Shown: positions 43,479-59,868, numbered from the stretch's first letter. The stretch is 64,000 nucleotides of DNA from Collinsella sp. (GCA_018363345.1 JAGZNZ010000002.1:13529-77528); one strand, 5' to 3'. Made by a program: numbers and translations. Notes: a model not told the origin generated them from the letters alone.

Positions 43479-43501
43479 GACACCCTCCTTCCTTTCTCTG
43501 C

Positions 43502-43517: not shown

Positions 43518-43554
43518 CGTATTTGACAATCGTCGGGCCTGTATGGCCGCCCGC

Positions 43555-46064: not shown

Positions 46065-47423
46065 CTAGCTCCTCGAATGTGCGACAAACTTGCTGTGGAG
46101 CAGACCGATCACAAACGCCACCACGGCGACTGGCGCCCACGCGGCACCGATATCCGCCAGGGGCAATGCATCGAACGGCAGCCACGCGCCCGCAAAGAAC
46201 GCATCGCGGACCGAAGTGATCACACTCTGCACCGCGACAACGCCGCCGACCCAGACCCACACCTGCGGATGAGAGTCGCAAAAGCCGTGCACCAGGCCCA
46301 TCAGTACCAGCACGATGGCAACGGGATACAAGGCGTTGAGCATGGGCACCGAGAACATAAGAATCACGTCGAGGCCCACATTGGAGAGCACGCACGAAAA
46401 CGCTGCGAACACAAAGGCGAGAACCGCAAAGGGACGGCGCATGGCCTCCTCAGAGGCCTCCGCTCCCCCTTCGACCACATACGTCTCGCAGAAGTAACGC
46501 GAGCAGCAGCTGATGAGGCCGATGCACACGTTCATGCAGGCGAGGAAGAAGATGGCGAAGACCACGACCGTGCCGGCAAGCCCAAAATGCATGGAGGCCG
46601 AACGGGCGAGGATGGCGGCGCCGTTGGTAGCGTCGGGCATCACGGTGCCGAGCTGCATACCGGCAAGTCCCAAGCCGCAGTAGATGATGGCCATGAGCAC
46701 GCCGGCGATCACGCCGGAGCGCGAAATCTCGAAGGCCACGCGCTTGTCATCGGTAACGCCCAGCTCGTGGATGGTCTCGGCGATGATGATGCCAAAGGCG
46801 AGCGACGCGAGCAGGTCCATGGTCTGGTAGCCGGTCAAAAAGCCCTGCACGGCAGCACCGGCATCATAGGGAGCCTGCGGCGCGGCGGCGGGGCCCAGCG
46901 GCGAGACCATGGCGGCACCCACGACCAATACGATAAGGGCAATGAGAGCGGGGCCCGTAATGCGGCCGAGCACGCGTGTGATGACGCCCGGGCGCAGCGT
47001 GAGCGCAAACGCGACGACAAAGAAGCCGACGGCAAACACCAGGCGCGCCGTGCCGAGCGAGACGCCCTCGGGCAACAGCGGCACCAGCATCTCGAAGGCC
47101 GTAGAGCTTGTGCGCGGAATGGCCAGGCACGGACCGATGGCCAGGTAGACCGCCGCAACGAAGAATTCGCCAAACTTAGGATGCACACGCCCGGCCAGCT
47201 CTCGGGCCGTGCCAGCGAGCGCGACGGCGATAAATCCCATAACGGGCAGACCGATAGCGGCAATCAAAAAGCCGATCATGGCAACCGGCGTGGCAGAACC
47301 TGCCTGCAGCGCCAGCAGCGGCGGAATAATGAGGTTACCGGCGCCAAAGAGCATCGAGAACAGCGCAATGCCGACGGTAACGACATGGTCGGAACGCAGA
47401 CCGCGCGGGGCGGATGAAGCCAT
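46065..47423 (-). CDS. brnQ: Branched-chain amino acid transport system II carrier (LIVCS family, BrnQ).
   Basis: About 12 TM segments and the N-terminal FGAGNLIIPP signature. ATG at 47423 has a GAAAGG RBS. Confidence 0.85.
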   Translation of the reverse strand: MASSAPRGLRSDHVVTVGIALFSMLFGAGNLIIPPLLALQAGSATPVAMIGFLIAAIGLPVMGFIAVALAGTARELAGRVHPKFGEFFVAAVYLAIGPCLAIPRTSSTAFEMLVPLLPEGVSLGTARLVFAVGFFVVAFALTLRPGVITRVLGRITGPALIALIVLVVGAAMVSPLGPAAAPQAPYDAGAAVQGFLTGYQTMDLLASLAFGIIIAETIHELGVTDDKRVAFEISRSGVIAGVLMAIIYCGLGLAGMQLGTVMPDATNGAAILARSASMHFGLAGTVVVFAIFFLACMNVCIGLISCCSRYFCETYVVEGGAEASEEAMRRPFAVLAFVFAAFSCVLSNVGLDVILMFSVPMLNALYPVAIVLVLMGLVHGFCDSHPQVWVWVGGVVAVQSVITSVRDAFFAGAWLPFDALPLADIGAAWAPVAVVAFVIGLLHSKFVAHSRS

Positions 47424-47499
47424 AGGCACACCTTTCGGGTCGAAACAAAAACGGGACGGGCAAAATACCCGTCCCGCAAGTATAAACGGTCCAGCAGCT

Positions 47500-48639
47500 T
47501 TAGCAGACTAAATTGCGCAGAGCATCGATAGCCGTATCGACTTCTTCGGTCGTGTTGAAATACCCAAACGAGAAGCGGACGACACCCTGGCGCTCGGTAT
47601 CTAACGCACGGTGCATGAGCGGAGCGCAATGGGCACCGGGGCGCGTCGCAATCCCCCACCCTTGCATGAGCGCGTCCGAGATCTCGGCCGAGTCGATATC
47701 ACCCACGTTGAGTGAGACGATCGCCGAGCGCACGGGCTGGTCAAACGCACCGTAGAGCGCAATGCCGGGGATTTCGCGAGCACCGGCGAGGAAGCGCTCT
47801 GCAAGCGAGCGCTCATGCGCCGCAATCGCCTCGACCCCACCTTGCGCCTCGATAAAGTCGAGACCGGCAGAAAGTCCCGCGATGCCGTGGCCGTTGAGCG
47901 TGCCCGCCTCAAGACGCGTGGGCCACTCAAGTGGCTGCAGCGGGTCAAAGCTGTGCACGCCCGTGCCGCCCATGGCCCACGGAGACACGTCAATGCCCTC
48001 CGCCACGGCCAGGCCGCCGGTGCCTTGGGGTCCCATGAGCCCCTTGTGGCCGGTAAAGCACACAATGTCGAGCCCCATGGCATGCATATCGATACGCGCC
48101 GTGCCGGCAGACTGAGAGGCATCGACGATCACCAGCGCACCTGCCGCATGGGCCATGGCCGCCACGCGCGCAATGTCGACCGCGTTGCCGGTCACATTAG
48201 AGGCATGCGTCACCACCACGGCACGCGTACCGGGCGTGACTAGCCGCTCGAGCTCGTCGTAGTCGAGCGCGCCGTTCGCGTCGCAACCCGCATGCTCAAC
48301 CGTCACACCCTGCTCTGCCGCCAAGCGATTGAGCGGACGTAGCACGGAGTTGTGCTCGAGCACCGTCGTGACCACGCGGTCGCCGGGGCGCACCACGCCA
48401 CAGATGGCGGTGTTGAGCGCCGCCGTAGAGTTGGGCGTAAAGCACACATGGTCCGCCCTCGGGCAACCTAAAAGGCGCGCGAGCTTGGCACGGCAACCGT
48501 GAATCGTACGAGCGGCATCGAGGGCACCCGACGTGGCGCCGCGCCCGGCATTGCCGAGCGAGCACATCGCCTGCGTCACGGCATCGATGACCGTCTGCGG
48601 CTTGTGCATGGTCGTCGCCGCGTTATCCAGGTAGATCAT
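47500..48639 (-). CDS. Class-V aminotransferase-fold cysteine desulfurase / selenocysteine-lyase-like enzyme.
   Basis: PLP-lysine motif FTGHKGLMGP and C-terminal active-site Cys in RPGAHCAP. ATGA overlap with the upstream DUF3343 gene. Confidence 0.8.
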   Translation of the reverse strand: MIYLDNAATTMHKPQTVIDAVTQAMCSLGNAGRGATSGALDAARTIHGCRAKLARLLGCPRADHVCFTPNSTAALNTAICGVVRPGDRVVTTVLEHNSVLRPLNRLAAEQGVTVEHAGCDANGALDYDELERLVTPGTRAVVVTHASNVTGNAVDIARVAAMAHAAGALVIVDASQSAGTARIDMHAMGLDIVCFTGHKGLMGPQGTGGLAVAEGIDVSPWAMGGTGVHSFDPLQPLEWPTRLEAGTLNGHGIAGLSAGLDFIEAQGGVEAIAAHERSLAERFLAGAREIPGIALYGAFDQPVRSAIVSLNVGDIDSAEISDALMQGWGIATRPGAHCAPLMHRALDTERQGVVRFSFGYFNTTEEVDTAIDALRNLVC

Positions 48640-48887
48640 CGCACGACCTCCCACATATCAATCACGGTATAGCCCTCGGTGGGAACGCCCGCCGCGGCGA
48701 GTTCACCGCGCAGCAGCTCCTCATCGGCAGGCAACGCTTTCCACGCCAGACCACAGCCGGCAGCGACCTCCCCGGGCACGGGAATCGTTCGCCCGGGAAG
48801 GCCACGCTCAACGCACAGGGACTCGCAGCCCATGGCGGCCGCCGTGGTGGGAAACGTGATGACAAGCGCCGGGCGCTTTTCCCTCAT
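48636..48887 (-). CDS. DUF3343 (putative Se/S-carrier-like) small protein, second paralogue.
   Basis: ALVITFPTTAAAMGCESLCVERGLPGRTIPVPGEVAAGCGLAWKA parallels the C-terminal domain of the protein at 21595..21990. Confidence 0.65.
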   Translation of the reverse strand: MREKRPALVITFPTTAAAMGCESLCVERGLPGRTIPVPGEVAAGCGLAWKALPADEELLRGELAAAGVPTEGYTVIDMWEVVR

Positions 48888-48906
48888 GGCAACTCCAACC
48901 AATACG

Positions 48907-49533
48907 CTACGGGCGCACGACGCGCACGGCCTGCTCCATCTTCTCCACGATCACGTACATGTTGGTGACCTCGCCCACCGCAAGCTGGTCTTTAATGCCA
49001 TAGTGGTCGAGGCAGGTACCACAGGTGAGAATCTCGACACCCTGCTCGGCCAGGCCCTTCAGGTCGTCGAGCACCGGCGAGCCCTCAACGGTGAGCTTGG
49101 CGCCGCCGTTGTAGAACAGCATGGTCGCGGGCAGCTCCTCCTGCTGCGTCACGGCAAAGATAAACGCCTTCATGAGCTTGTGGCCCAGCTCGTCGTCGCC
49201 GCGGCCCATGCAGTCGGTGTAGACGGAAATGACGAGCCTGCCCTTGCCGGCGCTGGCATCACAGAAGGCAGCGCCATCCTGCTCGGGATCGGCCATGGCA
49301 ACGGCGCCAGAGGTCGCCACGGTCACGTGCCACTCGGCGTCAGAAACCTTCTCGACCGAGGCCGTGCAGCCCTTCTCCTGCGCCATCTTGGAGATGTTCT
49401 TGACGGCGGTCTCGTTGTCGACCGAGGTCACGACGGCGCCCTCGCCATCGAGCTGCTTCAGAGCTTTGAGCGTCTTGACGACGGGCAGCGGGCAGGCATC
49501 GCCCATGGCATTGACTTCAATCTTGGTAGACAT
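48907..49533 (-). CDS. yedF: YedF-like selenium-metabolism protein (TusA/SirA-like N-terminal domain with CPxP, fused to a DsrE-like C-terminal domain).
   Basis: N-terminal AMGDACPLPVVKT (TusA CPxP motif) and C-terminal LTCGTCLDHYG (DsrE-like). About 208 aa. Confidence 0.75.
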   Translation of the reverse strand: MSTKIEVNAMGDACPLPVVKTLKALKQLDGEGAVVTSVDNETAVKNISKMAQEKGCTASVEKVSDAEWHVTVATSGAVAMADPEQDGAAFCDASAGKGRLVISVYTDCMGRGDDELGHKLMKAFIFAVTQQEELPATMLFYNGGAKLTVEGSPVLDDLKGLAEQGVEILTCGTCLDHYGIKDQLAVGEVTNMYVIVEKMEQAVRVVRP

Positions 49534-49594
49534 AGCAAATTCCTTTCGAAAGAGCCGTTCTAGAGAACGGCAAACAGTTACATAAACGTGCGGG

Positions 49595-50644
49595 CTAGCG
49601 AACAACGCGGACGGCAGGACCGCCCGGCTCCGCCTCGCACACGCGCCCGACAACGGCCGCGATGCGCCCCTCGGCATGCAGGCGACGCGCAAGCTCATCC
49701 ACATCGGCAGCAGGCGCCGCGATGAGCAAACCGCCCGAGGTCTGCGGATCGTACAGCGCATCCAACATGCCCGGCCCCAGGTCATCGTCGGCCGCCACGC
49801 GCGGGCCAAAGAAGTCCTGGTTGCGGTAGGCACCGGCAGGAATAATGCCCAGACGCGCCATGTCGAGCACCTGATCAAAGAGCGGCACCGCCCCCGACAC
49901 AAGCTCAATCTGCACGCCCGAGCCCTCGGCCATCTCGCACGCGTGCCCGATCAGGCCAAAGCCCGTGACATCGGTGCAGCCGTGAAGCTCAAGTCCCTCG
50001 GCCAGACGAATCGGGGCCTCGTTGAGGGCGCGCATCGAGTCGAACATCGGGCTGGCGTCATCCTGTTCGATAAGCTCGCCCTTAATGGCCGTGGTGATGA
50101 CGCCCGAGCCGATTGCCTTGGTCAGCAACAGGACATCGCCAACGCGCGCGCCGCTGTTGGCGAGCATGCGGTCGAGCGAGACAAAGCCGCTCACGGACAG
50201 GCCGTACTTGGGCTCGTCGTCGTTGATGGTGTGGCCGCCTGCGATGGAGCAACCCGCCTCGACGCACTTATCGGCGCCGCCCGCCAGAATCTGACCGGCA
50301 ACCTCAACGCCCAGGCAACTGGGTATGCAAAGCAGGTTCATGGCATGGCTCGGCCGCCCGCCCATGGCGTAGATGTCCGACAGCGAGTTGGCCGCAGCGA
50401 TCTGGCCAAACAGGAACGGGTCATCGACCATCGGTGGGAAGAAGTCGATGGACTGCACGAGCCCCAGGTTCTCCCCTACGCGGAAGACGCTCGCATCGTC
50501 GGAGGTATCGAACCCCACGAGCAAGTTGTCGTTATGCACATTGGGTAAGTCGCCCAGGACCTGGGCGAGGGCTCCGGGAGCCAACTTAGCGGCTCAACCG
50601 CTCGCGGCTGTCATGGACGTGAGCCTCATGGTGTCCTTAGCCAT
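49595..50644 (-). CDS. selD: Selenide, water dikinase SelD encoded as a selenoprotein (in-frame UGA at 50594-50596, equivalent to Cys17 of E. coli SelD).
   Basis: Reading upstream of the track ORF (which starts at a TTG) in the same frame gives MAKDTMRLTSMTAASG-U-AAKLAPGALAQVLGD...NLLVGFDTSDDA. This aligns with E. coli SelD [23 protein letters not shown]...NLLVGNETRDDA. ATG at 50642-50644 with a GGAAGGGGG RBS. Confidence 0.85.
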
Positions 50645-51854
50645 ACGAACCCCCTTCCAACAAATCAACGACTTTAAGTATACGCGCCAGGCACGCTTCC
50701 CAAGAGACCGCCGACGGCTCGAACGTCGAAAGCGGCGCCGCAAGCGCCTGCGCGATAGCATCTGCCAGTGCGCGCTCAAACAACGGAAGGTCGGCCGCCA
50801 CGGGCGTGTCGACATCCGTCACACGCGGCGACGCCGCCCACGTCACGGGAGCACCGGGAAGCATCGCCTCCATCCAGGGACGAACGCCGGGCAAATCGGT
50901 CGCCACAACTTTGCAGCCGCACGCGAGGGCCTCGATCGTCACGAGCGGCAGACCCTCGTAAAACGAAGGCAGCACAAAGACGTCGGAACTGCGGTAGGCA
51001 CGCACGAGCCCATCGCTATCCAGGCGCCCCGCCAGCGTCACCGGCACATCCGAGGCCGCGGTCAAGCGCTCGATACGCGCGTACTCGGCATCGTCCCCGC
51101 GGCCGCCCACAAGTACCAAGCCAGATGGGCGGACGCCATCGTCAATCGGCAATGACACAGCTCGAACCAGCGACTCGACGCCCTTTTTAAAGCAAATCTT
51201 GCCCACGTACACAAGCGATCCCGGCTGCCTCGCCACGCTTGCATCGCGGCAGAAGACGCGATGGTCGTAGCCCGTCCCAATCACGTGGATACGATCGGCA
51301 TCGACGCCGCACACCAGGCCAATCTGCTCAGCCTGCTCAGCATGGAGCGCAAAGACGGCATCGAGCCGACGAACCGCACTTACAATGCGATCGCGTTCGA
51401 GCGTATGCGAACGCAGCTGGCGCAGGTCGGTCGAATGACACACGGCAACAACCGGCACGCCTCGGACGCACTCGCGCGCCAATGCGGTCACCAGATACAG
51501 GTGATGGCAGAGCACCAGATCGGGCCGAAACTCAGCCACCGCTCGATCGATTGCAGCAGCAAATGCCCGCTCAAATGCCTTGAGCATCGAAGGCGTCAGA
51601 TCACGATAGCGTGTGGAGGGATAGGGCATGACATCGGACATGCCACAGATGGGAAACGGCAGCTCGGGCGACTCGAACGGTACGGCAAACACGGCAGCAC
51701 GCCGGTCCAGCTCGCCTTGGGTATCACCCGGTGCCGCGCCGCAAAGCACGGCGGCGCGATGCCCCGTCTCGATCTGCTCGCGTACGAGCGCGGCAAGGTA
51801 GGTGCCGCTGCCAGTGCTATCTGGTTTTTGTGCCGAGATATTGAGGATGCGCAT
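50637..51854 (-). CDS. GT4-family (GT-B, retaining) glycosyltransferase whose stop overlaps the selD start by 8 nt.
   Basis: EX7E motif FYEGLPLVTIEALACGCKVVATD and overall RfaG-like organisation; about 405 aa. Stop TAA at 50637-50639, inside the selD start ATGGCTAA. Confidence 0.75.
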   Translation of the reverse strand: MRILNISAQKPDSTGSGTYLAALVREQIETGHRAAVLCGAAPGDTQGELDRRAAVFAVPFESPELPFPICGMSDVMPYPSTRYRDLTPSMLKAFERAFAAAIDRAVAEFRPDLVLCHHLYLVTALARECVRGVPVVAVCHSTDLRQLRSHTLERDRIVSAVRRLDAVFALHAEQAEQIGLVCGVDADRIHVIGTGYDHRVFCRDASVARQPGSLVYVGKICFKKGVESLVRAVSLPIDDGVRPSGLVLVGGRGDDAEYARIERLTAASDVPVTLAGRLDSDGLVRAYRSSDVFVLPSFYEGLPLVTIEALACGCKVVATDLPGVRPWMEAMLPGAPVTWAASPRVTDVDTPVAADLPLFERALADAIAQALAAPLSTFEPSAVSWEACLARILKVVDLLEGGSYG

Positions 51855-51868
51855 GTCGCGGTACACCC

Positions 51869-52633
51869 CTAGGCCAAGGCGGCGGCGCGGACAGCCGCGC
51901 CGATCGCTCCGGCAAAGCGAGCCTGGGGCGAGGTGGTCACCGGCGACCCCAGTAGCTCGCCCAACCGCTCCACCACGAAGGCGTTCTCGCACAGGCCACC
52001 GGTCAGGTAGTACGGGGCGCCCGCGGCCTGCCCGGCCATGGTCGCCACGCGCGAGACCACACTGTCGATCACGCCACGCGCAATGTTCTCGCGCGGCTCA
52101 CCGCGACCGATCAGGCTGATGACCTCGCTTTCGGCAAACACCGTGCACATGCTGCTGATCTTGGTGGGCTCGCCGGAACGCGCCAGGTCGGCCATCTGCT
52201 GCTGGGAAATGCCCAGGCGGTCGGCCATGATCTCCAGAAAGCGCCCCGTGCCTGCGGCGCACTTGTCGTTCATGGCGAACTTTGCCACGCGGCCGCCCTT
52301 GAGTTGGATGACCTTGGTATCCTGGCCGCCCACGTCGATCACCGTGCCCTGCTCGCCAAACAGGCGGACCGCACCGGCACCATGGCAGGTGATCTCGGTC
52401 ACTACCTTGTTGGCATAGGGCACCGCGACACGGCCGTAGCCAGTCGCGACCACGCGAACATCGTCGCCCGTCACGTCATAGCCGGCTGCGGCGAGTTCAC
52501 CGCGTAGGCGCTCGGCCGCATCGACCGACGAATACCCCGTCGGCATGACGCAGGTCCACGCAATGGCGTTGTCCGTCTCCACCACCGCAGCCTTCGCGGC
52601 CGTCGAGCCTATGTCGATACCAATGCCAACCAC
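51869..52633 (-). CDS. BadF/BadG/BcrA/BcrD-type ATPase; HgdC-like activase of 2-hydroxyacyl-CoA-dehydratase-family enzymes.
   Basis: N-terminal GIDIGSTAAKAAV, the VIDVGGQDTK acetate/sugar-kinase-fold motif, and Cys residues for a bridging [4Fe-4S]. About 254 aa. Confidence 0.8.
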   Translation of the reverse strand: MVGIGIDIGSTAAKAAVVETDNAIAWTCVMPTGYSSVDAAERLRGELAAAGYDVTGDDVRVVATGYGRVAVPYANKVVTEITCHGAGAVRLFGEQGTVIDVGGQDTKVIQLKGGRVAKFAMNDKCAAGTGRFLEIMADRLGISQQQMADLARSGEPTKISSMCTVFAESEVISLIGRGEPRENIARGVIDSVVSRVATMAGQAAGAPYYLTGGLCENAFVVERLGELLGSPVTTSPQARFAGAIGAAVRAAALA

Positions 52634-52683
52634 GGCATCCTCCTTCTATGCGGCAAAGCAGCTATCCCTTTGCCGCATTTGTC

Positions 52684-53847
52684 CTACAGGGTCTCGATAA
52701 AGGCAGCGATGCGCGTCTCGATCTGGCCCATGTCACCGTTGCTGTAGTCGGTCTCGATCTTCATATACGGAATACCCGCACCCTCGACAACCTCCTGCAT
52801 GCGCGCACTCTCCACGTTAAAGGTGTGGCAGGCCTGCAGCACGCTCTCCACCACGCCATCGACGTGGTACTTCTCGCACATGGCCAGCGTGTTTTCCATA
52901 CGACCGTCGTTGGGCGTCATGACCGAGCAGTTGATGACCAGGTAGCGGTCGGCGATGGCACGCAGGATGTCGGGAGCCTCCGGATCGATCATCATGGCCG
53001 CCGTGCGCTCGCCCGAGCAATCGTCCATGCACACGACCACGCCGCCATTGGACTCGATGGTGCGACCGATCTTGTTGATCACGCCGCCCACCGGGCAACC
53101 AGTGATCAGAATGCGCTTGGCATCCGCCGCAACCGGGCGCTCGCCTGCGTCGTAGGCCTCGCGCAGCTTGGCAACCTTTTGCTCCAGTTGCTGCGTATAG
53201 GCCTCGATATCAAAGCTGAACGTAACGGCAAACATGGTGCTCATCAGGTCGACGCCGCTCATGGCCGCCGGCTGGTTAGCCTGCAGCGCAAACATCTCGA
53301 GCTGGGCCGCACGCAAGCGGTTGCGACGACGGACGGCAGCGCGCAGGTCATCGTCGGTAATCGTGATGCCGTAGAAGCCCTCGAGCTCCTCCTTGAGCAG
53401 GCGGCACTCCTCGTACCAGCCTTCACGCTCGTAGGCACGATCGCGACCCTGCGGAAGATGCAGAATGTGCGTGCGCTTGAGCTCGTTGAGTAGCTCGTAC
53501 ATCTTCTTCTTGCCGTCGCAGGTGGTCTCACCGATGATCATGTCGCTAAAGTACGTAAACGGACACTTTTGCGAATAGGCAAAACCATACGTAGACTTGA
53601 TGAGCGGGCACAGGTTTGCCGGCAGCACCTTCTCGGCCTCGGGAATCACCTCGTCGGACGTACCACACAGAGCCACGCTCGAGGCGCCCGCGGCATCGAT
53701 AATCTCGAGCGGCGTATAGCTGCACAGATAACCGACAAGACGATTGCCCGCCTGCTTGTAATCCTTAACGCGAATAAACGCGGCCTTGCGCTGCTCGTTG
53801 AACTCCTCAAACGTGGACGGCAACGACTGCTCAATATTTTCCGACAT
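52684..53847 (-). CDS. 2-hydroxyacyl-CoA dehydratase family subunit (HgdA/HgdB-like, D-component family).
   Basis: Conserved Cys ligands (CSYTP..., [16 protein letters not shown]); about 388 aa. Confidence 0.7.
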
Positions 53848-54001
53848 ATAACTCCTTAACAAACCTTTTAACCAACCAAGGAAACGGCTTTCCCAGGTGC
53901 CCGAGGTTGCCGTGAAAGAGGAGCGTCGCGTACTTTGGTACGCAAGCGACGGTTTGAACAGCAAGATCGGGTGCCTGGGGAAGCCGCCGGGACGAATAGT
54001 C

Positions 54002-55285
54002 CTAAATGGTTTCCAAGAAAGCCTCAATCCTGGTTTGCAGTTGGCCTGCATCCTCGCCGGCGTAGTCGGTCGTGATGTGCATAAACGGAATGCCGGCCTC
54101 CTCGGCAGCCTTCTCCACGGCAAACGACTCCATCTCGTAGAGCGTGCAGAACTGCAGGGCCACGTCGACAATGCCGTCGGCATGCAGGTCCTTGGCCATC
54201 TGGACAATGTCCTTCATACGCTGGTCGTTGGGCGTAAAGACGGCACAGTTGATCTTAAAGTAGCGCTCGGCGATAGCATCGAGCATCTCGTCAACCGTCT
54301 CACCGGACTCATCGACCAAGTCCTTGTAATAGCGCGAACCCGTGCAGGACTCCTCGCCCACCACAACGCCGCCGGCCTTCTCGATGAGGTTGAACAGCTT
54401 CCAGTTGGGCACGGCCATGGGCGTGCCGGTGTACAGAATGCGCTTGGTCCCCTTGGGCGCCACGCCCTCTCCGGCCTCGACACGCTGCTCACACTCGGCC
54501 GCCATATCGTTGATGGCTCCGGTCAGACGCGGCGTGTCGTCCATAAAGGCGGCCTGAACGGTCAGCAGGCTGTCGAGACCGCTAATGGGCGCTGGGTCGG
54601 CAGCGCGCGTGGCAGCGAGGCGCTGCAGGGCACGGCGCTTCTCATTGACGGCGTGGATGGCGGCTTTCAGACGCTCAGGCGTAATCGTGACGCCGCACTC
54701 TTCCTCGATCTTGGCGGCGAGCTTCTTGACCTCGGCCTTCCAGGTCACAAGCGTCGACTCGTCGTGTACGTTGGGAATATCCATGACGTACATGTTCTTT
54801 TGCGTGGCAAAGAACTCGTAGGCTTTCTTCTTGCCGTCGCAGGTGTTCTCGCCTACCACCAAGTCACTCGACTCAATGTAGGGGCAGACCTCGCCCAGCT
54901 TAAAGCCGGCAAAGCTCTTGATGAGCGGACAAGTGTTGCGCGGCAAGTGCTCCTCGACCTTGTCGGTCGCCCAATCGGCACCCGAGCACAGACCCACGGG
55001 GATACCGTCGCAGGCGAGCACAATCTCCTCGGGCACGTAGACGCAGAAGCTGCCCACGATCTTGGTGGCCTCGCCGGCCTCCTTCTTGTCGAGCATCTCC
55101 TTAATACGGCCGCTGTGGATGTTGGTGGCGACAAAATCCAGGTAGGACGTGGACTTGGGGCGATTATTCTGCGACAGGAACATGTCCCCGTACATCTGGC
55201 CCACGGCGCCCAGCAGCATATCGTGGTCGGCAAGATTCATGCCGAGGCTCTCCCACATCGGATGGAAATCGAATTCTTCAGCCAT
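54002..55285 (-). CDS. 2-hydroxyacyl-CoA dehydratase family subunit (second HgdA/HgdB-like paralogue).
   Basis: Paralogous to 52684..53847 ([23 protein letters not shown]). GAGAGGGGAA RBS. Confidence 0.7.
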
Positions 55286-55716
55286 GACGGTTCCCCTCTC
55301 GAACCAAAAACGGATAACAGCGGTATCGATGCACGACGGACGGCGATTGCCCGACCGTGCTCAAACCCGGAATTTTAGGGAACCTGCTTTGCGGTCGATT
55401 ATTTAGTTGTGCGTCGCCTCTCCCGGAGCCGTGAACATACCTGCTCATATGCGACTCCGAGCCATATACAGGGCGCGCGCGGCAACGCGGCGAATATATG
55501 TCGTCTGCGGCATGTGCGCACCCTCCTTTACAAGTTGAGGTCAACTATATCAACGGTCATCGACCATGCGAACACCGTTGACATTCGTACGACAGCGTCG
55601 TGTGCCGTCGTTTAATAAATAATTATCTTGATTGATAAGAGTTTGTCATTCCTCATTCGGCGAACGGCAAAAACAAAGCCGCCGAGGCTTATATTCCCCG
55701 ACGGCATTACCCGGCG

Positions 55717-56787
55717 CTATCGACAAACCAAATGGATCCTGCTGGCATCAAAATGCATGCGCAGCGTCTCGCCTGCTTGCGGCAGCTCGTCGACAGGCAT
55801 GCGCACTTTGTTGACCTTCCACTGCAGGCGCGTCGGCGCGTCGGCGCGCGGCACGTCCAGCAGCACCAGGCGCTCAAAACGTGAATCGCTCACGCGGGCC
55901 ACATGCAGGTCGTAGCTGTTGCGACCCCGCTCAGCACGGTTGTCCACATGGAAGTAGCTCGCACGAATACCCAGGTACGCCACGTTATCGGGAACCTCAC
56001 GGCCCACGTTGAAGGTCATGCCCCAGTCGAGGGCCTCAACTTCTTCGTCGCCGATCTTGCGCGCGCGGCTCGTATTCTTGCAGCCCGTCAAGCGCAGCGC
56101 GGCCAACGTCTGCGGATGACGGACCACGTCCTCGACGGAGCCGATCTCCTCAACATGCCCGTTGTGCATCACGCAGATGCGCTCGCACAGACGGCACGCT
56201 TCGTCGATGTCGTGGCTCACGTAGAGCACGGTTCGGTTGCATACATCGAACAGATCGAGCATGTTTTGCTCAAGCGCGCTCTTGAGATACGCGTCGAGCG
56301 CGCTCATGGGCTCATCGAACATAAAGATGCCCGGATGCGCCGCCACCATGCGCGCAAGCGCCACGCGTTGCTGCTGACCGCCCGAGAGGCGCACGGGGTA
56401 GCGGTCGACAAAATCGGCCAGACCGAAAATGCCCAGATAACGCTCGGCGAGCTTTTTGCGCGCGGCGGCGTCGCCCGCATCCTTTACGCCGGCGCACACG
56501 TTATCGGCCACCGTCATGTTGGGAAACAACTGATAGTTTTGGAACAGTAGGGCGCATTTTCGCTCCTGGGGCGACAGGTCGATGCCCGCGGCCGAGTCAA
56601 AAAAGGTCACGCCGTTGACGACGATCTTGCCCTCGTCGGGCGTCTCCACACCGGCAATGCAGCGCAGCGTGCAGCTCTTGCCGCAACCCGAGGCGCCCAG
56701 CAGTGCCACGCGCTCCTCGCCGGCCTCAAGCTGCATGTCGAGCACAAACCCGGGATAACGTTTCTTAATATCCAAAACGAGCGACAT
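55717..56787 (-). CDS. modC: Molybdate ABC transporter ATP-binding protein with C-terminal TOBE domains.
   Basis: Walker A GASGCGKS, signature LSGGQQQRV, Walker B IFMFDEP. The C-terminal about 120 aa is TOBE-like. Confidence 0.85.
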   Translation of the reverse strand: MSLVLDIKKRYPGFVLDMQLEAGEERVALLGASGCGKSCTLRCIAGVETPDEGKIVVNGVTFFDSAAGIDLSPQERKCALLFQNYQLFPNMTVADNVCAGVKDAGDAAARKKLAERYLGIFGLADFVDRYPVRLSGGQQQRVALARMVAAHPGIFMFDEPMSALDAYLKSALEQNMLDLFDVCNRTVLYVSHDIDEACRLCERICVMHNGHVEEIGSVEDVVRHPQTLAALRLTGCKNTSRARKIGDEEVEALDWGMTFNVGREVPDNVAYLGIRASYFHVDNRAERGRNSYDLHVARVSDSRFERLVLLDVPRADAPTRLQWKVNKVRMPVDELPQAGETLRMHFDASRIHLVCR

Positions 56788-56790
56788 GGC

Positions 56791-58215
56791 CTATCGACCT
56801 CCCGTCGAGACGGCGTCATCGCGCATGAGCTCGGCCAGCGCCTCGCGATCGATACGCAGCGCATCGCCGCCGACCGGGTCGAGCGAATCGCCCTGTCCGG
56901 CGAATTCTTTGGCCTGCCTGCGCTCCGCACGGGAAAGGCCCCGTTCGCGATACTTTTGCGAATGCGCCGTGTACATGTTGATGAACAGGATGACCAGGAA
57001 ACTGAACACGATTACGACAATGACCCAAAAGAGAGCTACCGACGTGTTGCCGCCCATCCACTCAAAGTAGATGGCGATGGGAATGGTCTGCGTAATGCCG
57101 GCATAGTTGCCCGCAAAGAACAGCGTGCAGCCAAACTCTCCCATGGCGCGGGCAAAGGCGAGCACCGTACCGGCGGCAATCGAGGGCCAGCCGAGCGGCA
57201 TCATAAGCTTGGTAAAGATGCGACGTTCGGACCACCCCAAGGTTCGCGCGGCGTCGAGCATCTGCGTGTCGAGGCTCTCGAAGGCTCCGAGCGCCGTGCG
57301 GTAGACCAGCGGAAACGACACAACGACGGCCGAAATGACCGCCGCGGGCCAGGTAAAGACGATCGAGATACCGTGCGCGATGAGCCACTGGCCCACCCCG
57401 GTCGAGCGGCCAAACAGCATGAGGAGCAGAAAGCCGCAGACCGTGGGCGGCAGCACCATAGGAATCGTAAAGACCGAATCGAGCAGGCCCTTGATGCGAC
57501 TCGAGGTACCCATAGTCTTCCACGCGGCAAACAGGCCCAGTGCAAAGGCAATCAGCAGGGCAAGGCCGCTCGTTTTGATAGACACCCAAAACGGGCGGTA
57601 GTCGATGCCGCCTAAAAAGGAGGCCAAAGAGGTCAAGGGCCCCTGCTCATTCCGCAACACGACTGACGATGCTTCTACCATTTGAGCGCTATCAAGCCAA
57701 CGCGCGCCGCCCTTGGCATCACCCGAGGCCGATGCAATCACCACATAGCGGTCCCCATCCGCACCGCGTTCGTCAAAGCCATAGGTATACCCGCCGGCAT
57801 CAAACGTTGTTTCCGCCGTGACATACCAAGGAAGATCCACGTCCCCCAGCTGCGCACCTCCCATGCAGTTTGCGCTGTCGAGCTCACAGACGAGGGTCTT
57901 GAGGCCCGATACGCACTCGTTGTCCTGCGGATCCAATCCATACTTCTCGACCGCCTTGGGCGATATCCACACCACAACGCGATCGGCAGCAGGCGCCACT
58001 ACAAGGTCCACGTCCTCGTCAACGGGAAACCGGTAGCCCTCAGGCTGGCCCTCCATGGCACGAGCGGTCCCCTTGGCCAACCGCTCAAAACCCTCGATCC
58101 CATAGGAAAGCCCATGAGCGGTCGCAGCAACCTGGGCCCCGTCCTCGGCGTCCCCAGCAAACGCAAATCCCGGCACCCAGCAAAGCGCGAAGGTCAAAGC
58201 ACAGGCGACAAGCAT
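56791..58215 (-). CDS. modB: Molybdate ABC permease ModB fused to a ~220-aa N-terminal signal-peptide-bearing extracytoplasmic domain of unknown function.
   Basis: The C-terminal half has the ABC permease EAA-loop region (ARTLGWSERRIFTKLMMPL). The N-terminal MLVACALTFALCWVPGFAFA looks like a signal or anchor peptide, followed by a novel domain. One continuous ORF. Confidence 0.7.
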   Translation of the reverse strand: MLVACALTFALCWVPGFAFAGDAEDGAQVAATAHGLSYGIEGFERLAKGTARAMEGQPEGYRFPVDEDVDLVVAPAADRVVVWISPKAVEKYGLDPQDNECVSGLKTLVCELDSANCMGGAQLGDVDLPWYVTAETTFDAGGYTYGFDERGADGDRYVVIASASGDAKGGARWLDSAQMVEASSVVLRNEQGPLTSLASFLGGIDYRPFWVSIKTSGLALLIAFALGLFAAWKTMGTSSRIKGLLDSVFTIPMVLPPTVCGFLLLMLFGRSTGVGQWLIAHGISIVFTWPAAVISAVVVSFPLVYRTALGAFESLDTQMLDAARTLGWSERRIFTKLMMPLGWPSIAAGTVLAFARAMGEFGCTLFFAGNYAGITQTIPIAIYFEWMGGNTSVALFWVIVVIVFSFLVILFINMYTAHSQKYRERGLSRAERRQAKEFAGQGDSLDPVGGDALRIDREALAELMRDDAVSTGGR

Positions 58216-58301
58216 GCGGAATCTATTAAGCACAAAAAGCTCCAAGAGAATACAAGGACGGAGTTAAACACAAAACGATGGAATTATCGCGCCAAGCCGC
58301 A

Positions 58302-59174
58302 CTACGCGGAAAGCTCAAAGCCGTATTTGGCCCAAATCTTCTGGGCCTTCTTGTTGGACAGGCAAAAGTCGATAAACGCCTTGGCCTCGTCGGCATGTTC
58401 GGAGCCATCGGCGACAGCGCCCGGATACACGATGGGCTTATGCGAGTCCTCGGGACACACAAAGGCCTCCTCGATGCCGTCGTAGCGGTAGATGTCGGAG
58501 CTGTAGACAAAGCCAGCCACGCAGTCGCCCGTAGAGACGTAAGACGCAGCCGTGCCGACCTTGTCGGCCAGGGCCACCTTGTTGGCGATCTCGGGGGCGT
58601 ACTCGCCGTCGTCGCCCTCGGTGCCGGTGTAGAGGCCCACGGAGGCCAGGGCCTGGTTGGCGTACTTGCCGGCGGGAACGGTCTTGGCGTCGCCAATGGC
58701 GATCTTGCCGTCCAGATTCGCGACGTCGGCGATGGCCTCGACCTTGGTGTCGGAGCCCTCAGCGCGAATGATCACGAGGTCGTTGACGAACATATCCTCA
58801 CGGGTGTCGGCGTCGACGAGCTCGGCGGCCTCGGCGTCATCCATGGTGCCCTTGGAGGCTGTGATGAGCACGTCGACGGCGGCACCGGCGCGCATCTGCT
58901 CGACAAGGTCGCCGGACGCTTTGAACTGCGTGTCGGCAAACGTGGTGCCGGTCTGCTCGGTGTAGAGCTCCTGGACCTCGGGCAGAGCCTTCTCGAGAGA
59001 GTTAGCAGCGAAGACCTGAAGCTCGACAGCCTTCTTGGACGAAGTCTTGGCGGAACCGGCATCGGAGCCAGTCGACTCAGGTGCCTTATTGTCGGAGCAG
59101 CCGGCAAGGCCAAGGCCAGCAGCGGCGACAGCAGAAAGCGAGACGAATCCGCGGCGAGAAACCATATCGAACAT
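58302..59174 (-). CDS. modA: Molybdate ABC transporter substrate-binding lipoprotein.
   Basis: N-terminal SRRGFVSLSAVAAAGLGLAGC (RR motif plus lipobox) and a ModA-type periplasmic binding fold. ATG at 59174 has a GAAAGGG RBS. Confidence 0.8.
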   Translation of the reverse strand: MFDMVSRRGFVSLSAVAAAGLGLAGCSDNKAPESTGSDAGSAKTSSKKAVELQVFAANSLEKALPEVQELYTEQTGTTFADTQFKASGDLVEQMRAGAAVDVLITASKGTMDDAEAAELVDADTREDMFVNDLVIIRAEGSDTKVEAIADVANLDGKIAIGDAKTVPAGKYANQALASVGLYTGTEGDDGEYAPEIANKVALADKVGTAASYVSTGDCVAGFVYSSDIYRYDGIEEAFVCPEDSHKPIVYPGAVADGSEHADEAKAFIDFCLSNKKAQKIWAKYGFELSA

Positions 59175-59330
59175 GTTCAACCCTTTCGAAGACTACACCC
59201 GGGCGCCCCGCCGCGAGCTTTGTTCTGTTACTAGATTATACTTTCACGCGAATAATGTTTCTGATGAATAGCTCTCGCCCGATAATTTTCTTTTACCAAT
59301 AACCGCGAGACGGCCCGCACCGTCACTGCA

Positions 59331-59365
59331 TAAAAAGGCGGAGCAGCCCGTAGGGTTACTCCGCC
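59331..59365 (-). terminator. Intrinsic terminator after mogA (stem GGCGGAG/CTCCGCC, 15-nt loop, then UUUUUA on the minus strand).
   Basis: Read directly. Confidence 0.55.
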
Positions 59366-59378
59366 GCAGGTAGTGCGC

Positions 59379-59858
59379 TTATTTGGCATGCCCGCCGCCC
59401 GCCGTCATTTGGGCCGCATGCTCCAGCTGATCGCTCACGGCCTCCCAGCTTTCGCGGGCCGCTTTCGTGGATCCCGGAAAGTTGATGACAAGCGTATGCC
59501 CACGTTGCATGCACACGGCGCGCGAGAGCATGGCGCGGCGCGTCTTGGTCATGGAGTACGCACGGATTGCCTCTGCAATACCCGGCACATCGCGCTCGCA
59601 GACGGCACGCGTCGCCTCGGGCGTCACATCGCGCATCGAAAGCCCCGTGCCGCCGCAGGTGAGCACGACATTGGCGTGGCACTCATCGGCGGCTTCCACA
59701 ATGGCATCACCGATCTCGCTGACGTCGTCGCGCACGACCACATGCGAGGCGACCGTCCAGCCCTGCGCCTCGATAAGTTCCTCGAGTGCGGCTCCAGCCT
59801 CGTCCTGGGCTAGATCGCGCGTATCCGAGCACGTCACGATCGATATCTTCAGCTCCAT
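59379..59858 (-). CDS. mogA: Molybdenum cofactor biosynthesis protein MogA/MoaB.
   Basis: MoCF-biosynthesis fold with the GGTG motif (LTCGGTGLSMRD). About 159 aa. Confidence 0.8.
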   Translation of the reverse strand: MELKISIVTCSDTRDLAQDEAGAALEELIEAQGWTVASHVVVRDDVSEIGDAIVEAADECHANVVLTCGGTGLSMRDVTPEATRAVCERDVPGIAEAIRAYSMTKTRRAMLSRAVCMQRGHTLVINFPGSTKAARESWEAVSDQLEHAAQMTAGGGHAK

Positions 59859-59868
59859 AGCATTCCTC

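Follow-up and report, generated by a model that had tools for sequence, protein, structure and literature searches.

What does an ATPase activator, together with two proteins of the HGD-D family, do next to the gene for selenophosphate synthetase? The question is raised by three adjacent genes in a genome of Collinsella sp. (GCA_018363345.1), in a window of 64,000 nucleotides. A preliminary description of this DNA had placed the three genes in the same orientation between modABC and a glycosyltransferase gene followed by selD. The coordinates bear this out: we confirmed the positions and the minus strand of the trio (activase, D2, and D1), which has modC on one side and a GT4 glycosyltransferase gene on the other, all in the same orientation. 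The genes are listed below in their order along the minus strand. (DCCP stands for double-cubane cluster protein and DCCP-R for its cognate ATPase.)

59869-61146, minus strand: moeA, a neighbour outside the DCCP-selenium unit
59379-59870, minus strand: MoCF_biosynth-domain (mog/moaB-like) gene, outside the unit
58302-59180, minus strand: modA, outside the unit
56791-58245, minus strand: modB, outside the unit
55717-56787, minus strand: modC, outside the unit
54002-55285, minus strand: D1, HGD-D protein 1, 427 aa (PF06050, E 1e-121)
52684-53847, minus strand: D2, HGD-D protein 2, 387 aa (PF06050, E 1.1e-110)
51869-52633, minus strand: activase, DCCP-R / archerase-type ATPase, 254 aa (PF01869, E 6.6e-55; TIGR00241)
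50637-51854, minus strand: GT4 glycosyltransferase, 405 aa (Pfam GT4/GT1 domains)
49595-50644, minus strand: selD, selenophosphate synthetase (TIGR00476, 335.2 bits, cutoff 125)
48907-49530, minus strand: yedF, selenium-metabolism sulfurtransferase-like, with TusA and DsrE domains (TIGR03527, 213.4 bits, cutoff 110)
48636-48887, minus strand: DUF3343 / Se_S_carrier small protein, 83 aa (PF11823, E 1.4e-18, 66.5 bits, cutoff 25)
47500-48639, minus strand: sclA-like gene, cysteine desulfurase / selenocysteine-lyase-like, EF2568 family (TIGR01977, 410.9 bits, cutoff 377)

The true start of D2 is the ATG at 53847, and the mechanical reading frame that reaches 54207 is an over-extension. In the selenium-utilisation set, SelD, YedF, the TIGR01977 desulfurase, and the PF11823 protein all exceed curated cutoffs. 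(The sclA-like protein scores 344 bits with the SclA model NF040779, under its cutoff of 525.) selD has an in-frame TGA (Sec17) at 50596-50594, in the translation TAASG*AAKLAPG; the preliminary description included neither this codon nor the DUF3343 gene. The window as a whole is a dense island of anaerobic selenium and molybdenum functions, with selA, selB, tRNA-Sec, fdhH(Sec), hyc, XDH, and mod. The XDH-family gene is at 16087-18930, and its protein does not pass the cutoff of any SDMH model.

We examined the family membership of D1 and D2 with the NCBIfam model NF040772, whose curated cutoff for DCCPs is 350 bits. Both proteins exceed it (492.0 bits for D1 and 494.6 bits for D2). Alignment to solved proteins separates the two. 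Residues 6-427 of D1 align to the DCCP of Carboxydothermus hydrogenoformans (PDB:6ENO and 7YYL; E ~1e-125), and the alignment to 6ENO starts at residue 3-4, so the N-terminal extension is present. D2 aligns to residues 63-420 only of 6ENO (E 1.5e-78), so the extension is absent. In the solved DCCP this extension closes the CoA funnel, and a protein that lacks it could admit larger substrates (Jeoung and Dobbek). The DCCP motif has seven cysteines, six of them cluster ligands and one beside the cluster (PMC7317905). These are C81, C100, C119, C149, C314, C347, and C380 in D1 and Cys 42, 61, 80, 110, 273, 307, and 340 in D2; all seven are invariant in an 11-sequence alignment, with spacings in D1 and D2 that are one to two residues off the published motif. 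D1 and D2 are 37% identical to each other, and D2 shares 47% identity with YjiM from E. coli along its whole length. By these comparisons, D1 is a long class I DCCP and D2 a short, YjiM-like class II DCCP, and the two are full paralogues instead of an alpha/beta pair.

The activase scores 235.7 bits with TIGR00241 (cutoff 125.4). Its best match in the PDB is MbdQ (3.5e-49), followed by HgdC (1HUX; 1.8e-47) and DCCP-R (7YYL_E; 1.3e-43). Two cysteine-containing segments are conserved, MNDKCAAGTGRF and SSMCTVFAESE. The gene begins 50 nt 3' of D2, so that, as judged by homology, a cognate ASKHA/archerase ATPase (DCCP-R) gene lies alongside the DCCP genes, as in C. hydrogenoformans (CHY_0487/0488). 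There are differences from that system: a single ATPase gene serves two paralogues that have diverged from each other, a long one and a short one, and the Collinsella genes are predicted to share one transcript with selD, yedF, the DUF3343 gene, and sclA. The E. coli module is another useful comparison. Its gene order is yjiM-yjiL-ytiA, where ytiA encodes a DUF3343 protein (PF11823) and overlaps the stop of yjiL. Like D2, YjiM has the short class II architecture, with the activase gene directly after it and a DUF3343 gene in the module. But E. coli encodes only one DCCP, the neighbourhood lacks selD, yedF, and any gene of the selenocysteine-lyase type, and ytiA directly follows the activase gene, whereas the Collinsella DUF3343 gene follows yedF. 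(An RNA-seq table groups yjiM and yjiL with hyc, hyp, hyb, and ynfG genes; PMC9068703.)

The preliminary description had called the trio an activase plus two HgdA/B-like subunits. The trio and its activase stand, but the HgdA/B-type pair does not, and the comparison of domains and cluster ligands that it proposed puts D1 and D2 with the YjiM-like and double-cubane proteins, not with HgdAB, HadBC, or FldBC. If the trio nevertheless acted on a CoA thioester, as a genuine 2-hydroxyacyl-CoA dehydratase or an enzyme of the benzoyl-CoA reductase type, this would account for the Pfam domains (HGD-D and BcrAD_BadFG) and, perhaps, for the lack of a channel-closing extension in D2. HgdAB-HgdC, HadBC-HadI, and FldBC-FldI do share the fold of the PF06050 superfamily and the type of ATP-dependent, electron-injecting activator. 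However, these dehydratases are alpha/beta heterodimers with a CoA funnel and one 3-Cys [4Fe-4S] cluster per subunit, whereas D1 and D2 each keep the seven DCCP cysteines, and the 3-Cys pattern was found in neither. The HadC model (cutoff 700) gives 105.9 bits for D1 and 87.9 bits for D2, and the HadB model (cutoff 750) gives 24.2 bits for D2 and does not match D1. The dehydratases also occur with CoA-transferase and pathway genes. As the preliminary description had stated, there are no such genes nearby: the window genes scanned include neither a CoA-transferase nor an acyl-CoA dehydrogenase gene, nor any gene of a 2-hydroxyacid pathway, and there is no ferredoxin partner near the trio. Nor are CoA-transferase, 2-hydroxyacid dehydrogenase, or acyl-CoA dehydrogenase genes recurrent in 65 related DCCP loci (described below). 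As for the class I benzoyl-CoA reductases (BzdNOPQ/MbdNOPQ), BzdN carries an [8Fe-9S] cluster and their ATPase module is homologous to the activase. But their double cubane is an electron store beside a catalytic [4Fe-4S]-OH2 subunit, and they have two different ATPase subunits, where the Collinsella locus has one ATPase gene (143.9 bits with the BzdQ model, cutoff 380). The BzdN model gives 75-87 bits (cutoff 453.8) and the BcrC model about 64 bits (cutoff 421). An enzyme acting on CoA thioesters is hardly credible here, and the suggestion that these genes are non-canonical holds up.

We then asked which genes the trio may be transcribed with. A consensus scan found a terminator-like hairpin directly 3' of modC (55678-55705, minus strand; a 10-bp stem with 8 G-C pairs and a T-run). 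In the 431-bp gap 5' of D1, the same kind of scan found two sigma-70-like matches on the minus strand, ATGACA-16-GATAAT at 55649-55622 (10/12) and TTCGCA-17-TATAGT at 55572-55544; nothing else in 47400-61400 matched a promoter. Because of this hairpin and these promoter-like sites, the trio is set apart from the mod operon. The next strong terminator-like site comes only after the sclA-like gene (47451-47477, minus strand; a 12-bp stem with 8 G-C pairs and a T-run, again by consensus scan only). From D2 onwards, the intergenic gaps and overlaps include 50, 14, -8, 64, and -4 nt: the GT4 gene starts 14 nt past the activase stop, its own stop overlaps the start of selD by 8 nt, and the stop of the DUF3343 gene overlaps the start of the sclA-like gene (ATGA). 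There appears to be a predicted unit of eight genes, D1-D2-activase-GT4-selD(Sec)-yedF-DUF3343-sclA-like, with the trio proximal to the promoter.

Within this unit, the GT4 gene is a strain-variable insert. It is present in 22 of the 62 Collinsella loci; in the other 40 the activase gene directly precedes selD, so the GT-selD pair of the preliminary description is not a fixed one. Its GC3 is 0.69, as compared to about 0.8 in the neighbouring genes, and homologues occur in selenium clusters of other Coriobacteriia. A GT-B gene that is directly upstream of selD and overlaps it is reminiscent of SenB-SenC, the selenosugar synthase and SelD homologue of selenoneine biosynthesis. But the glycosyltransferase here is of the GT4 type and is missing from most Collinsella loci, and there is no senA among the eight genes of the operon, all of which are otherwise identified. 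We also rejected SenB itself as a candidate: TIGR04348 gives 20 bits (cutoff 300) and covers only the C-terminal nucleotide-sugar domain, and no SenB chain is among the PDB matches of the GT4 protein. Among solved structures, the closest to it are MshA, BshA, GlgM, and SPS-like enzymes, and no NCBIfam model scores above its cutoff.

Is the linkage to selenium genes conserved? Across 80 GTDB loci (all but one of them Collinsella-type), the core order is D1-D2-act-selD-yedF-DUF3343-sclA wherever the contig is long enough; D2 or the activase is missing in one or two of them. Parolsenella has D1-D2-act-selD-yedF-DUF3343-desulfurase-...-yqeC-yqeB-xdhC, Thermophilibacter has yedE-TusA-DUF3343-D1-D2-ABC-act, and in UMGS609 selD-yedF-sclA is immediately 3' of D1. 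Other D1 orthologues are beside grd genes or within a cluster for Se-dependent XDH and YgfK. Collinsella conserves the linkage to selenium genes, and other Coriobacteriia retain it in rearranged form. selD is directly adjacent to the DCCP module in three genera, although this adjacency is confined to Coriobacteriaceae and Atopobiaceae. Adjacency to mod and moeA is found only in Collinsella and, loosely, in Parolsenella.

As an unbiased test, we took a census of 65 diverse non-Collinsella metagenomic DCCP loci (29-70% GC), using all-versus-all clustering of their reading frames. The most recurrent neighbour is the activase family (44 loci). After it come YedF (13), DUF3343 (8), the TIGR01977 desulfurase (7), and TusA, YedE, and LysR_Se (4 each). 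A generic ABC ATPase family also recurs (11 loci), but the only specific recurrent neighbours besides the activase are YedF, DUF3343, the SclA-like desulfurase, YedE/TusA, and LysR_Se; no substrate-pathway genes recur around these DCCPs, and neither do the mod, moe, yqeB, or yqeC families. At least one selenium-trafficking gene is adjacent in 24 of the 65 loci, mostly on the same strand, and in 13 of the 27 loci of at least 10 kb. The 24 linked loci span 14 of the 25 DCCP clusters (at 70% identity). Representatives of the neighbours exceed the cutoffs of selenium-specific models (YedE TIGR04112, YedF TIGR03527, and LysR_Sec_metab NF040786), and the YedE representative has 503 bits with TIGR04112 as against 28-31 bits for the thiosulfate transporter TsuA. 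The remaining 41 loci have no adjacent selenium gene, and many of these are on short contigs. In two cases on long contigs, Thermoleophilia L087 and Coriobacteriia L088, no selenium gene lies within 10 kb.

The co-occurrence of DCCPs and SelD was already published by Haft & Gwadz: 955 of 970 NF040772 proteins are in assemblies that encode SelD (bioRxiv 10.1101/2022.07.06.499078). In Slackia, the activase and HGD subunits are STRING partners of YedE, YedF, or DUF3343 (PMC5322559, Table 1). The trio gives a sharpened, testable hypothesis about a known association. DCCPs were found in 4.7% of the genomes of Haft's calibration set, as compared to 38% of representative genomes for SelD, so selenide supply cannot generally depend on a DCCP. 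The physiological function of DCCPs was stated to be unknown in the literature of 2022 and of 2025. Acetylene, hydrazine, and azide are substrates of the solved DCCP (6ENO), whose model has a sulfide bridge and in which selenium plays no part. Neither dithionite nor Ti(III) citrate reduces its double-cubane cluster (PMC9351452).

We propose that the trio is an ATP-driven, low-potential reductase in selenium trafficking, which most likely makes selenide for SelD; we put the probability of this at about 50%. Sequence analysis shows the assignment to the family, the ligands of the cluster, the signals of an operon, and the recurrence of the gene linkage, and gene context suggests the substrate. 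A dimer of the activase, of the DCCP-R type, would take an electron from ferredoxin or flavodoxin and, on ATP hydrolysis, inject it into the predicted [8Fe-9S] cluster of D1 and D2. These would most likely reduce a form of selenium on which the usual reductants of the cell act poorly. Candidate substrates are elemental or carrier-bound Se(0), such as a perselenide on SclA, YedF, or DUF3343; selenite or a small organoselenium compound would also be possible. The product would be selenide, which SelD would convert to selenophosphate for the synthesis of selenoproteins and selenium cofactors. The standard potential of Se/H2Se is about -0.40 V, and the pKa1 is about 3.9. From these values we calculated a potential for Se(0)/HSe- of about -0.72 V at pH 7 under standard conditions, or about -0.55 V at micromolar selenide, which is where ATP-energised electrons are used. 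Of the preliminary suggestion of reductive chemistry on a selenium or molybdenum cofactor intermediate, we keep the selenium part, which we infer from linkage that other genomes retain through repeated rearrangement, while the molybdenum part is not supported. The analysis of neighbourhoods that it proposed gave the same split, with selD linked in three genera and mod linked in Collinsella and loosely in Parolsenella.

The gene order, in which selD lies downstream, would suit a DCCP that consumes selenium just as well as one that supplies it. The cluster or a nearby residue might need selenium (for instance, as a selenide-bridged [8Fe-8S-Se] cluster) while the enzyme reduces an unrelated small molecule; selD, yedF, DUF3343, and sclA would then be maturation factors for the DCCP. 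Haft listed this as a formal possibility given the co-occurrence with SelD. But a catabolic enzyme should have recurrent substrate-pathway genes, and only selenium-trafficking genes and LysR_Se recurred. Also, reviews of the 6ENO structure give a mu2-sulfido bridge for this acetylene-reducing enzyme, and we found no DCCP variants with cysteine replaced by selenocysteine (TGA) in about 170 loci, so we consider a selenium-requiring DCCP unlikely. A related caveat is that YedF, YedE, DUF3343, and LysR_Se are called selenium genes mostly from comparative genomics, and DUF3343 is also present in organisms without SelD (PMC5322559); therefore, the substrate could be a sulfur species. The trio would then release sulfide reductively from persulfide, polysulfide, or thiosulfate-derived sulfane sulfur on carriers of the TusA, DsrE, or DUF3343 type, and the selenium label of the neighbours would be annotation by association. 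TusA, DsrE, and NifS-like folds are indeed sulfur-trafficking folds, PF11823 is named "Se/S carrier", and the Thermophilibacter locus includes an SsuA-like ABC cassette. A role in sulfur metabolism is quite unlikely, though, given the scores of the neighbours with TIGR04112, TIGR03527, and NF040786, the direct adjacency of selD in three genera, and the near confinement of DCCPs to SelD-positive genomes. Sulfane sulfur is also easy to reduce in thermodynamic terms, and ATP-energised electrons should not be needed for it.

The position beside moeA, the mog-like gene, and modABC would be explained if the reductase matured or reactivated the Se-Mo cofactor of selenium-dependent molybdenum hydroxylases. 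The mod and moeA genes upstream in Collinsella, the yqeB, yqeC, xdhC, and modAB genes that adjoin the Parolsenella locus, a D1 orthologue flanked by Se-dependent XDH and ygeX and close to YgfK, and the XDH-family gene in the window all fit. But the terminator-like site between modC and D1 separates the two groups of genes, the molybdenum-related families do not recur in the census, and the window's XDH-like protein is under every SDMH cutoff. Furthermore, D1 orthologues are also beside glycine reductase, which is a Sec enzyme without molybdenum, and yjiML-ytiA in E. coli is distant from the ygf/xdh region. The molybdenum link is lineage-specific, and a molybdenum cofactor as the target is very unlikely. 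Finally, the DCCP might be an anaerobic reductase for some small molecule that has regulation, or an "anaerobe island", in common with the selenium genes but no direct function with them. The density of anaerobic functions in the window and the DCCP loci without selenium neighbours are consistent with this. However, chance adjacency should be roughly 1% (a rough estimate, from a few genes and a few kb in a 2-4 Mb genome), as against the 37-48% observed. At least six gene orders put the DCCP or activase immediately by YedF, DUF3343, SclA, or YedE; the adjacency spans 29-69% GC and 14 DCCP clusters; and DUF3343 is between the DCCP and the activase in some loci, while the E. coli genes overlap. 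Linkage without a shared function also seems quite improbable.

The generation of selenide from refractory selenium species is a step to which no dedicated enzyme has been assigned so far. More tentatively, DCCP/DCCP-R (YjiM/YjiL in E. coli) with DUF3343 and YedF may be the reductase that anaerobes dedicate to this step, driven by ATP and turning Se(0), carrier-bound perselenide, or another refractory selenium species into selenide for SelD; we view this as possible but doubtful. The [8Fe-9S] double-cubane cofactor would then have its first physiological substrate, and the near confinement of DCCPs to genomes with SelD would be explained. A further consequence would be that the GT4 protein in selenium clusters of Coriobacteriia makes a selenium-linked sugar or low-molecular-weight carrier. 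The linkage to selenium genes is found again in numerous anaerobes, E. coli among them, and offers a testable clue to the job of the DCCP family.

The two HGD-D proteins of the trio, D1 and D2, are double-cubane cluster proteins (DCCPs). Both exceed the cutoff of 350 for the NCBIfam model of this family (NF040772; 492 bits for D1 and 494.6 bits for D2), whereas they score just 24-106 bits against the HadB and HadC models (cutoffs 700-750) and 64-87 bits against the BzdN and BcrC models (cutoffs 421-454). The preliminary description read the trio as dehydratase-like and suspected a non-canonical role, and comparison with known dehydratases agrees that it is non-canonical: HMM cutoffs, cysteine pattern, and gene context rule out a canonical dehydratase or a benzoyl-CoA reductase. 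Both D1 and D2 keep the seven DCCP-motif cysteines, which do not vary in the alignment. The alignment of D1 with the DCCP from C. hydrogenoformans (PDB:6ENO and 7YYL; E about 1e-125) runs the full length, whereas that of D2 starts only at residue 63 of the solved protein. D2 is 47% identical to E. coli YjiM over its whole length. Because of the extent of these alignments, we assign D1 to the long class I and D2 to the short class II (terms of Jeoung and Dobbek; PMC7317905). D1 shares 37% identity with D2, and the two are paralogues of one kind instead of an alpha/beta dehydratase pair.

The activase is an ordinary ATPase of the archerase type; it matches MbdQ, HgdC, and the DCCP reductase 7YYL_E best, and both of its cysteine-bearing segments are conserved. 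(We rejected activase-glycosyltransferase "fusions" of 600-670 amino acids from Collinsella MAGs, P0121-P0133, as Rosetta-stone evidence. Their junctions are frameshifts into the open upstream glycosyltransferase frame, or an internal deletion, and they are probably assembly errors or pseudogenes, not domain fusions.)

The source genome belongs to the C. aerofaciens group of Collinsella, and the G+C content of the window is about 62%. The minus-strand gene order bears out the position and orientation of the trio in the preliminary description, as well as its statement that no CoA-pathway genes lie nearby:

59869-61146, minus strand, moeA
59379-59870, minus strand, MoCF_biosynth-domain gene (mog/moaB-like)
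58302-59180, minus strand, modA
56791-58245, minus strand, modB
55717-56787, minus strand, modC
54002-55285, minus strand, D1 (427 amino acids)
52684-53847, minus strand, D2 (387 amino acids)
51869-52633, minus strand, activase (254 amino acids)
50637-51854, minus strand, GT4 glycosyltransferase (405 amino acids)
49595-50644, minus strand, selD, with an in-frame TGA (50596-50594, Sec17)
48907-49530, minus strand, yedF
48636-48887, minus strand, DUF3343 / Se_S_carrier gene (83 amino acids; PF11823, E 1.4e-18)
47500-48639, minus strand, SclA-like desulfurase (TIGR01977)
46065-47429, minus strand, brnQ-like gene

The DUF3343 gene, which separates yedF from the sclA-like gene, was absent from the preliminary description; its stop overlaps the start of the sclA-like gene. 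As a separate observation, ModB has an N-terminal extension of about 215 amino acids that starts like a signal sequence and matches no Pfam family. It precedes the permease domain (residues ~220-425) and is kept in Collinsella gene calls (480 amino acids).

A simple consensus scan of 47400-61400 for promoters and terminators found a strong terminator-like hairpin directly 3' of modC (55705-55678). Sigma-70-like matches number just two, both in the 431-bp gap before D1, and the next comparably strong terminator is just past the sclA-like gene (47477-47451). The spacer between D1 and D2 measures 154 nt, and from D2 on, the gaps or overlaps are 50, 14, -8, 64, and -4 nt. These consensus patterns predict a single unit, D1-D2-activase-GT-selD-yedF-DUF3343-sclA, apart from modABC. 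The preliminary description suggested possible reductive chemistry on a selenium or molybdenum cofactor intermediate; the link of the trio to selenium is supported and that to molybdenum is not, and the reductive chemistry itself is a possibility. No riboswitch or other known RNA was found in the 431-bp leader (no Rfam match above the gathering score).

Seen more widely, the window forms an island of genes for selenium, molybdenum, and anaerobic functions:

41256-43595, minus strand, formate dehydrogenase-H-like gene, with an in-frame TGA (43059-43061) in the motif CART-U-HGPTV
26424-28607, minus strand, second molybdopterin oxidoreductase gene, adjoining focA, hycI, and the hyc-type hydrogenase set
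24890-26374, minus strand, selA
22926-24908, minus strand, selB
22797-22889, minus strand, tRNA-Sec (Rfam RF01852, 64.6 bits)
16087-19853, minus strand, xanthine dehydrogenase (XDH)-family fused Fe-S/Mo protein (947 amino acids) and FAD subunit

The hyc-type hydrogenase genes are at about 29.5-40.6 kb, and selA, selB, and tRNA-Sec are about 21 kb from selD. The TGA in selD (50594-50596) is at the catalytic Cys/Sec position, so SelD is itself a selenoprotein. In a check for a SECIS element after this TGA, hairpins are present, with fold energy indistinguishable from that of shuffled sequences (z = -1.37).

We then asked which genes recur near DCCPs outside of Collinsella. A metagenome search with a 61%-identical homologue as the lead gave 80 loci, of which 65 were not from Collinsella (G+C 29-70%). 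We clustered all ORFs of these 65 loci all-against-all, ignoring antisense shadow ORFs, and ordered the resulting families by how many loci contain them:

DCCP, 65 of 65 loci
Activase, 44 of 65
YedF, 13 of 65
Generic ABC ATPase, 11 of 65
DUF3343, 8 of 65
TIGR01977 desulfurase, 7 of 65
Small TusA, 4 of 65
YedE, 4 of 65
LysR-type regulator, 4 of 65

No further family recurred in more than 3 of the 65 loci. Apart from the activase, the only specific neighbours that recur with DCCPs are carriers of selenium, one transporter, one lyase-like enzyme, and one regulator. Family representatives exceed the cutoffs of curated, selenium-specific models (YedF: TIGR03527, 209 bits, cutoff 110; desulfurase: TIGR01977, 448 bits, cutoff 377; LysR: LysR_Sec_metab NF040786, 262.9 bits, cutoff 250), and the DUF3343 representative scores 71 bits against PF11823. 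At least one selenium gene is directly beside the DCCP or the activase in 24 of 65 loci, mostly on the same strand. By locus size, this adjacency is seen in 13 of 27 loci of at least 10 kb, 8 of 21 of 5-10 kb, and 3 of 17 shorter ones. (In two loci, L138 at 4405-5325 and L157 at 1-786, a LysR gene that passes NF040786 diverges from DCCP-activase-YedF.)

A search of genome contigs with D1 as the lead also gave 80 loci. Identity is 98-100% for all but one of them, and these are labelled Collinsella, with a few labelled Coriobacteriaceae or "uncultured bacterium"; the remaining one is a Coriobacteriaceae MAG at 89% identity. The near-restriction to Collinsella arises because GTDB splits the genus finely, and this search therefore informs us about strain variation, not deep conservation; diversity came from the metagenome search with its different lead. 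Wherever the Collinsella contig is long enough, the core order moeA-modABC-D1-D2-activase-selD-yedF-DUF3343-sclA-brnQ is kept. Eight of 62 Collinsella loci, all of them with the glycosyltransferase, have a five-gene Opp/Nik-type ABC cassette between D1 and D2 (for example, L001 at 11469-16722, which corresponds to the spacer at 53848-54001 in the window). In Thermophilibacter, the ABC cassette is of another, SsuA-like kind and sits between D2 and the activase. Insertion of transporter genes into DCCP operons is a recurring event.

Outside Collinsella, the link with selenium genes that the preliminary description had noted persists in changed order; Parolsenella massiliensis and the MAG with ygeX, both described below, are two such cases. 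Thermophilibacter immobilis has yedE-TusA-DUF3343-D1-D2-(SsuA-like ABC)-activase, after which come genes for a C_GCAxxG (seleno)protein and a TehA-like protein. In a related Coriobacteriaceae MAG, selD-yedF-sclA comes directly after D1, and in an Atopobiaceae MAG, a glycine reductase operon adjoins D1. (Genes for a C_GCAxxG_C_C "(seleno)protein" and a TehA/SLAC1-like anion channel adjoin DCCP genes in two Atopobiaceae genomes, at L084, 16243-17720, and L085, 8198-9698. They may be another chalcogen-anion link.)

The glycosyltransferase is an accessory gene, yet it is associated with selenium genes. It is present in 22 of 62 informative Collinsella loci; otherwise, selD directly follows the activase. 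Its GC3 is 0.69, versus about 0.8 in neighbouring genes. It is not SenB (20 bits, cutoff 300, and no SenB chain among its PDB matches). Its closest solved relatives are retaining GT4 enzymes (SPS-like Tll1590, GlgM, MshA, and BshA), most of which use small soluble acceptors. Homologues with 50-60% identity lie inside or beside selenium clusters in four other lineages: T. immobilis (within yedF-DUF3343-GT-sclA), Arabiibacter (selB-selA<>GT-sclA-yedF-DUF3343), and Slackia faecicanis and an Eggerthellaceae MAG (both selB-selA<>GT). One Olsenella homologue has no selenium gene cluster there. Counting the window gene (50637-51854, minus strand) and loci L089, L090, L091, and L173, this GT4 family is in or near selenium clusters in at least five genera of Coriobacteriia. 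In S. heliotrinireducens, a glycosyltransferase adjoins YedE, according to Lin et al. (PMC5322559).

E. coli K-12 carries yjiM (a class II DCCP), yjiL (the activase), and ytiA, in that order (NC_000913.3, 4563668-4565850; 11669-13851 in our locus L174). The start of ytiA (b4715; 85 amino acids) overlaps the stop of yjiL by 4 nt. It is annotated only as "uncharacterized protein YtiA", and its product is a Se_S_carrier/DUF3343 protein (PF11823, 48.9 bits, cutoff 25). The DCCP-activase-DUF3343 module is therefore present in a model organism. Our literature search found no functional work linking yjiM, yjiL, or ytiA to selenium. In an RNA-seq table for a ygfI deletion, yjiM (log2 -6.9) and yjiL (-5.3) are among the most decreased genes, alongside hycB-F, hypB/C, hybB, pflB, dmsA, and ynfG (PMC9068703). 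This circumstantial pattern fits an anaerobic role for yjiM and yjiL that is tied to formate hydrogenlyase.

How might the DCCP system act? As predicted from sequence, the ATPase dimer, with its bridging [4Fe-4S] cluster, would deliver ATP-energised electrons to the [8Fe-9S] clusters of D1 and D2. The substrate may be a selenium species and the product selenide for SelD. YedF and DUF3343 as carriers, the SclA-like enzyme, and YedE as a putative importer would be natural upstream partners; by analogy with its relatives, the SclA-like enzyme may release selenium from selenocysteine. E0(Se/H2Se) is about -0.40 V, and pKa1 is about 3.9. From these values we calculate a potential for Se(0)/HSe- of about -0.72 V at pH 7, and still about -0.55 V at micromolar selenide. 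At potentials this low, ATP-coupled electron injection would make sense. The double-cubane cluster of the solved enzyme is not reducible by dithionite or Ti(III) citrate (PMC9351452).

The DCCP might instead be a client enzyme that depends on selenium. Haft and Gwadz proposed selenium-compound processing or, formally, a selenium-bridged cluster (bioRxiv 10.1101/2022.07.06.499078). We found no selenocysteine-containing variants of DCCP, activase, or YedF: in-frame stops were few, and all were at non-cysteine positions. The substrate could also be a sulfur species rather than selenium. Against this, the YedE representative passes its selenium-specific model (TIGR04112, 503 bits, cutoff 200) and is not the thiosulfate transporter TsuA. 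Another alternative is maturation of a selenium-molybdenum cofactor. In one MAG, D1 lies between a selenium-dependent xanthine dehydrogenase and ygeX, with ygfK adjoining, and in Parolsenella massiliensis, D1-D2-activase-selD-yedF-DUF3343-desulfurase is followed by yqeC, yqeB, xdhC, and modAB. The XDH-family protein of the window passes no NCBIfam cutoff, including those for selenium-dependent molybdenum hydroxylases (XdhA, 607 versus 780; Se_dep_XDH, 377 versus 830).

Or the DCCP could be a mere co-regulated neighbour of selenium genes. The long contigs of a Thermoleophilia MAG and a Coriobacteriia MAG have just the DCCP plus activase, and selenium genes are absent within 10 kb of them. Against this reading, the 24 selenium-adjacent loci span 14 of 25 DCCP clusters (at 70% identity), and we roughly estimate that such adjacency would be expected by chance on the order of 1%. 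Gene orders differ as well (DCCP-act-YedF; YedE-TusA-DCCP-act; SclA-DCCP-DUF3343-act; DCCP-DUF3343-act; DCCP-DUF3343-YedF-SclA-act-DCCP). Overall, we consider it quite probable that the DCCP system is functionally part of selenium (chalcogen) trafficking. That it catalyzes the specific selenide-generating reaction is a tentative proposal. For the combined reading, in which the trio acts within selenium trafficking and makes selenide, we give a probability of roughly 0.5. (Separately, we rejected a role in the published anaerobic urate/purine pathways: two 2025 preprints mention no activase or HGD-type enzyme.)

DCCPs were structurally defined in 2018, and enzymology papers from 2022 and 2025 call their physiological function unknown. 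Haft and Gwadz built NF040772 and reported that 955 of 970 strong matches are in SelD-encoding assemblies; their preprint does not mention YedF (bioRxiv 10.1101/2022.07.06.499078). In S. heliotrinireducens, an activase, HGD subunits, and a glycosyltransferase appear as STRING partners of YedE, YedF, or DUF3343 in Lin et al. 2015, and the passages of its text that we examined do not discuss them (PMC5322559). In a 2023 preprint about mlp clusters, DCCP and DCCP-R (the activase) are marked as "putative selenium metabolism" genes (PMC10418091), and a 2022 review of prokaryotic selenium metabolism mentions neither. Given the SelD statistic and these listings, the association of DCCP with selenium is not new. 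We know of no mechanism or experimental handle for it so far.

D1, D2, and the activase are new members of a known family. What is new here is the physical linkage to selD, at the level of the operon, in a genus abundant in the human gut, the unbiased neighbour result, and the observation, from ytiA, that the same module occurs in E. coli K-12. Together, the Collinsella locus and the E. coli module make the question of DCCP function directly testable. If our reading is true, it would close a gap in our understanding of how selenide is acquired by strict anaerobes that lack glutathione, and it would bear on the competition of gut Collinsella for selenium, too.
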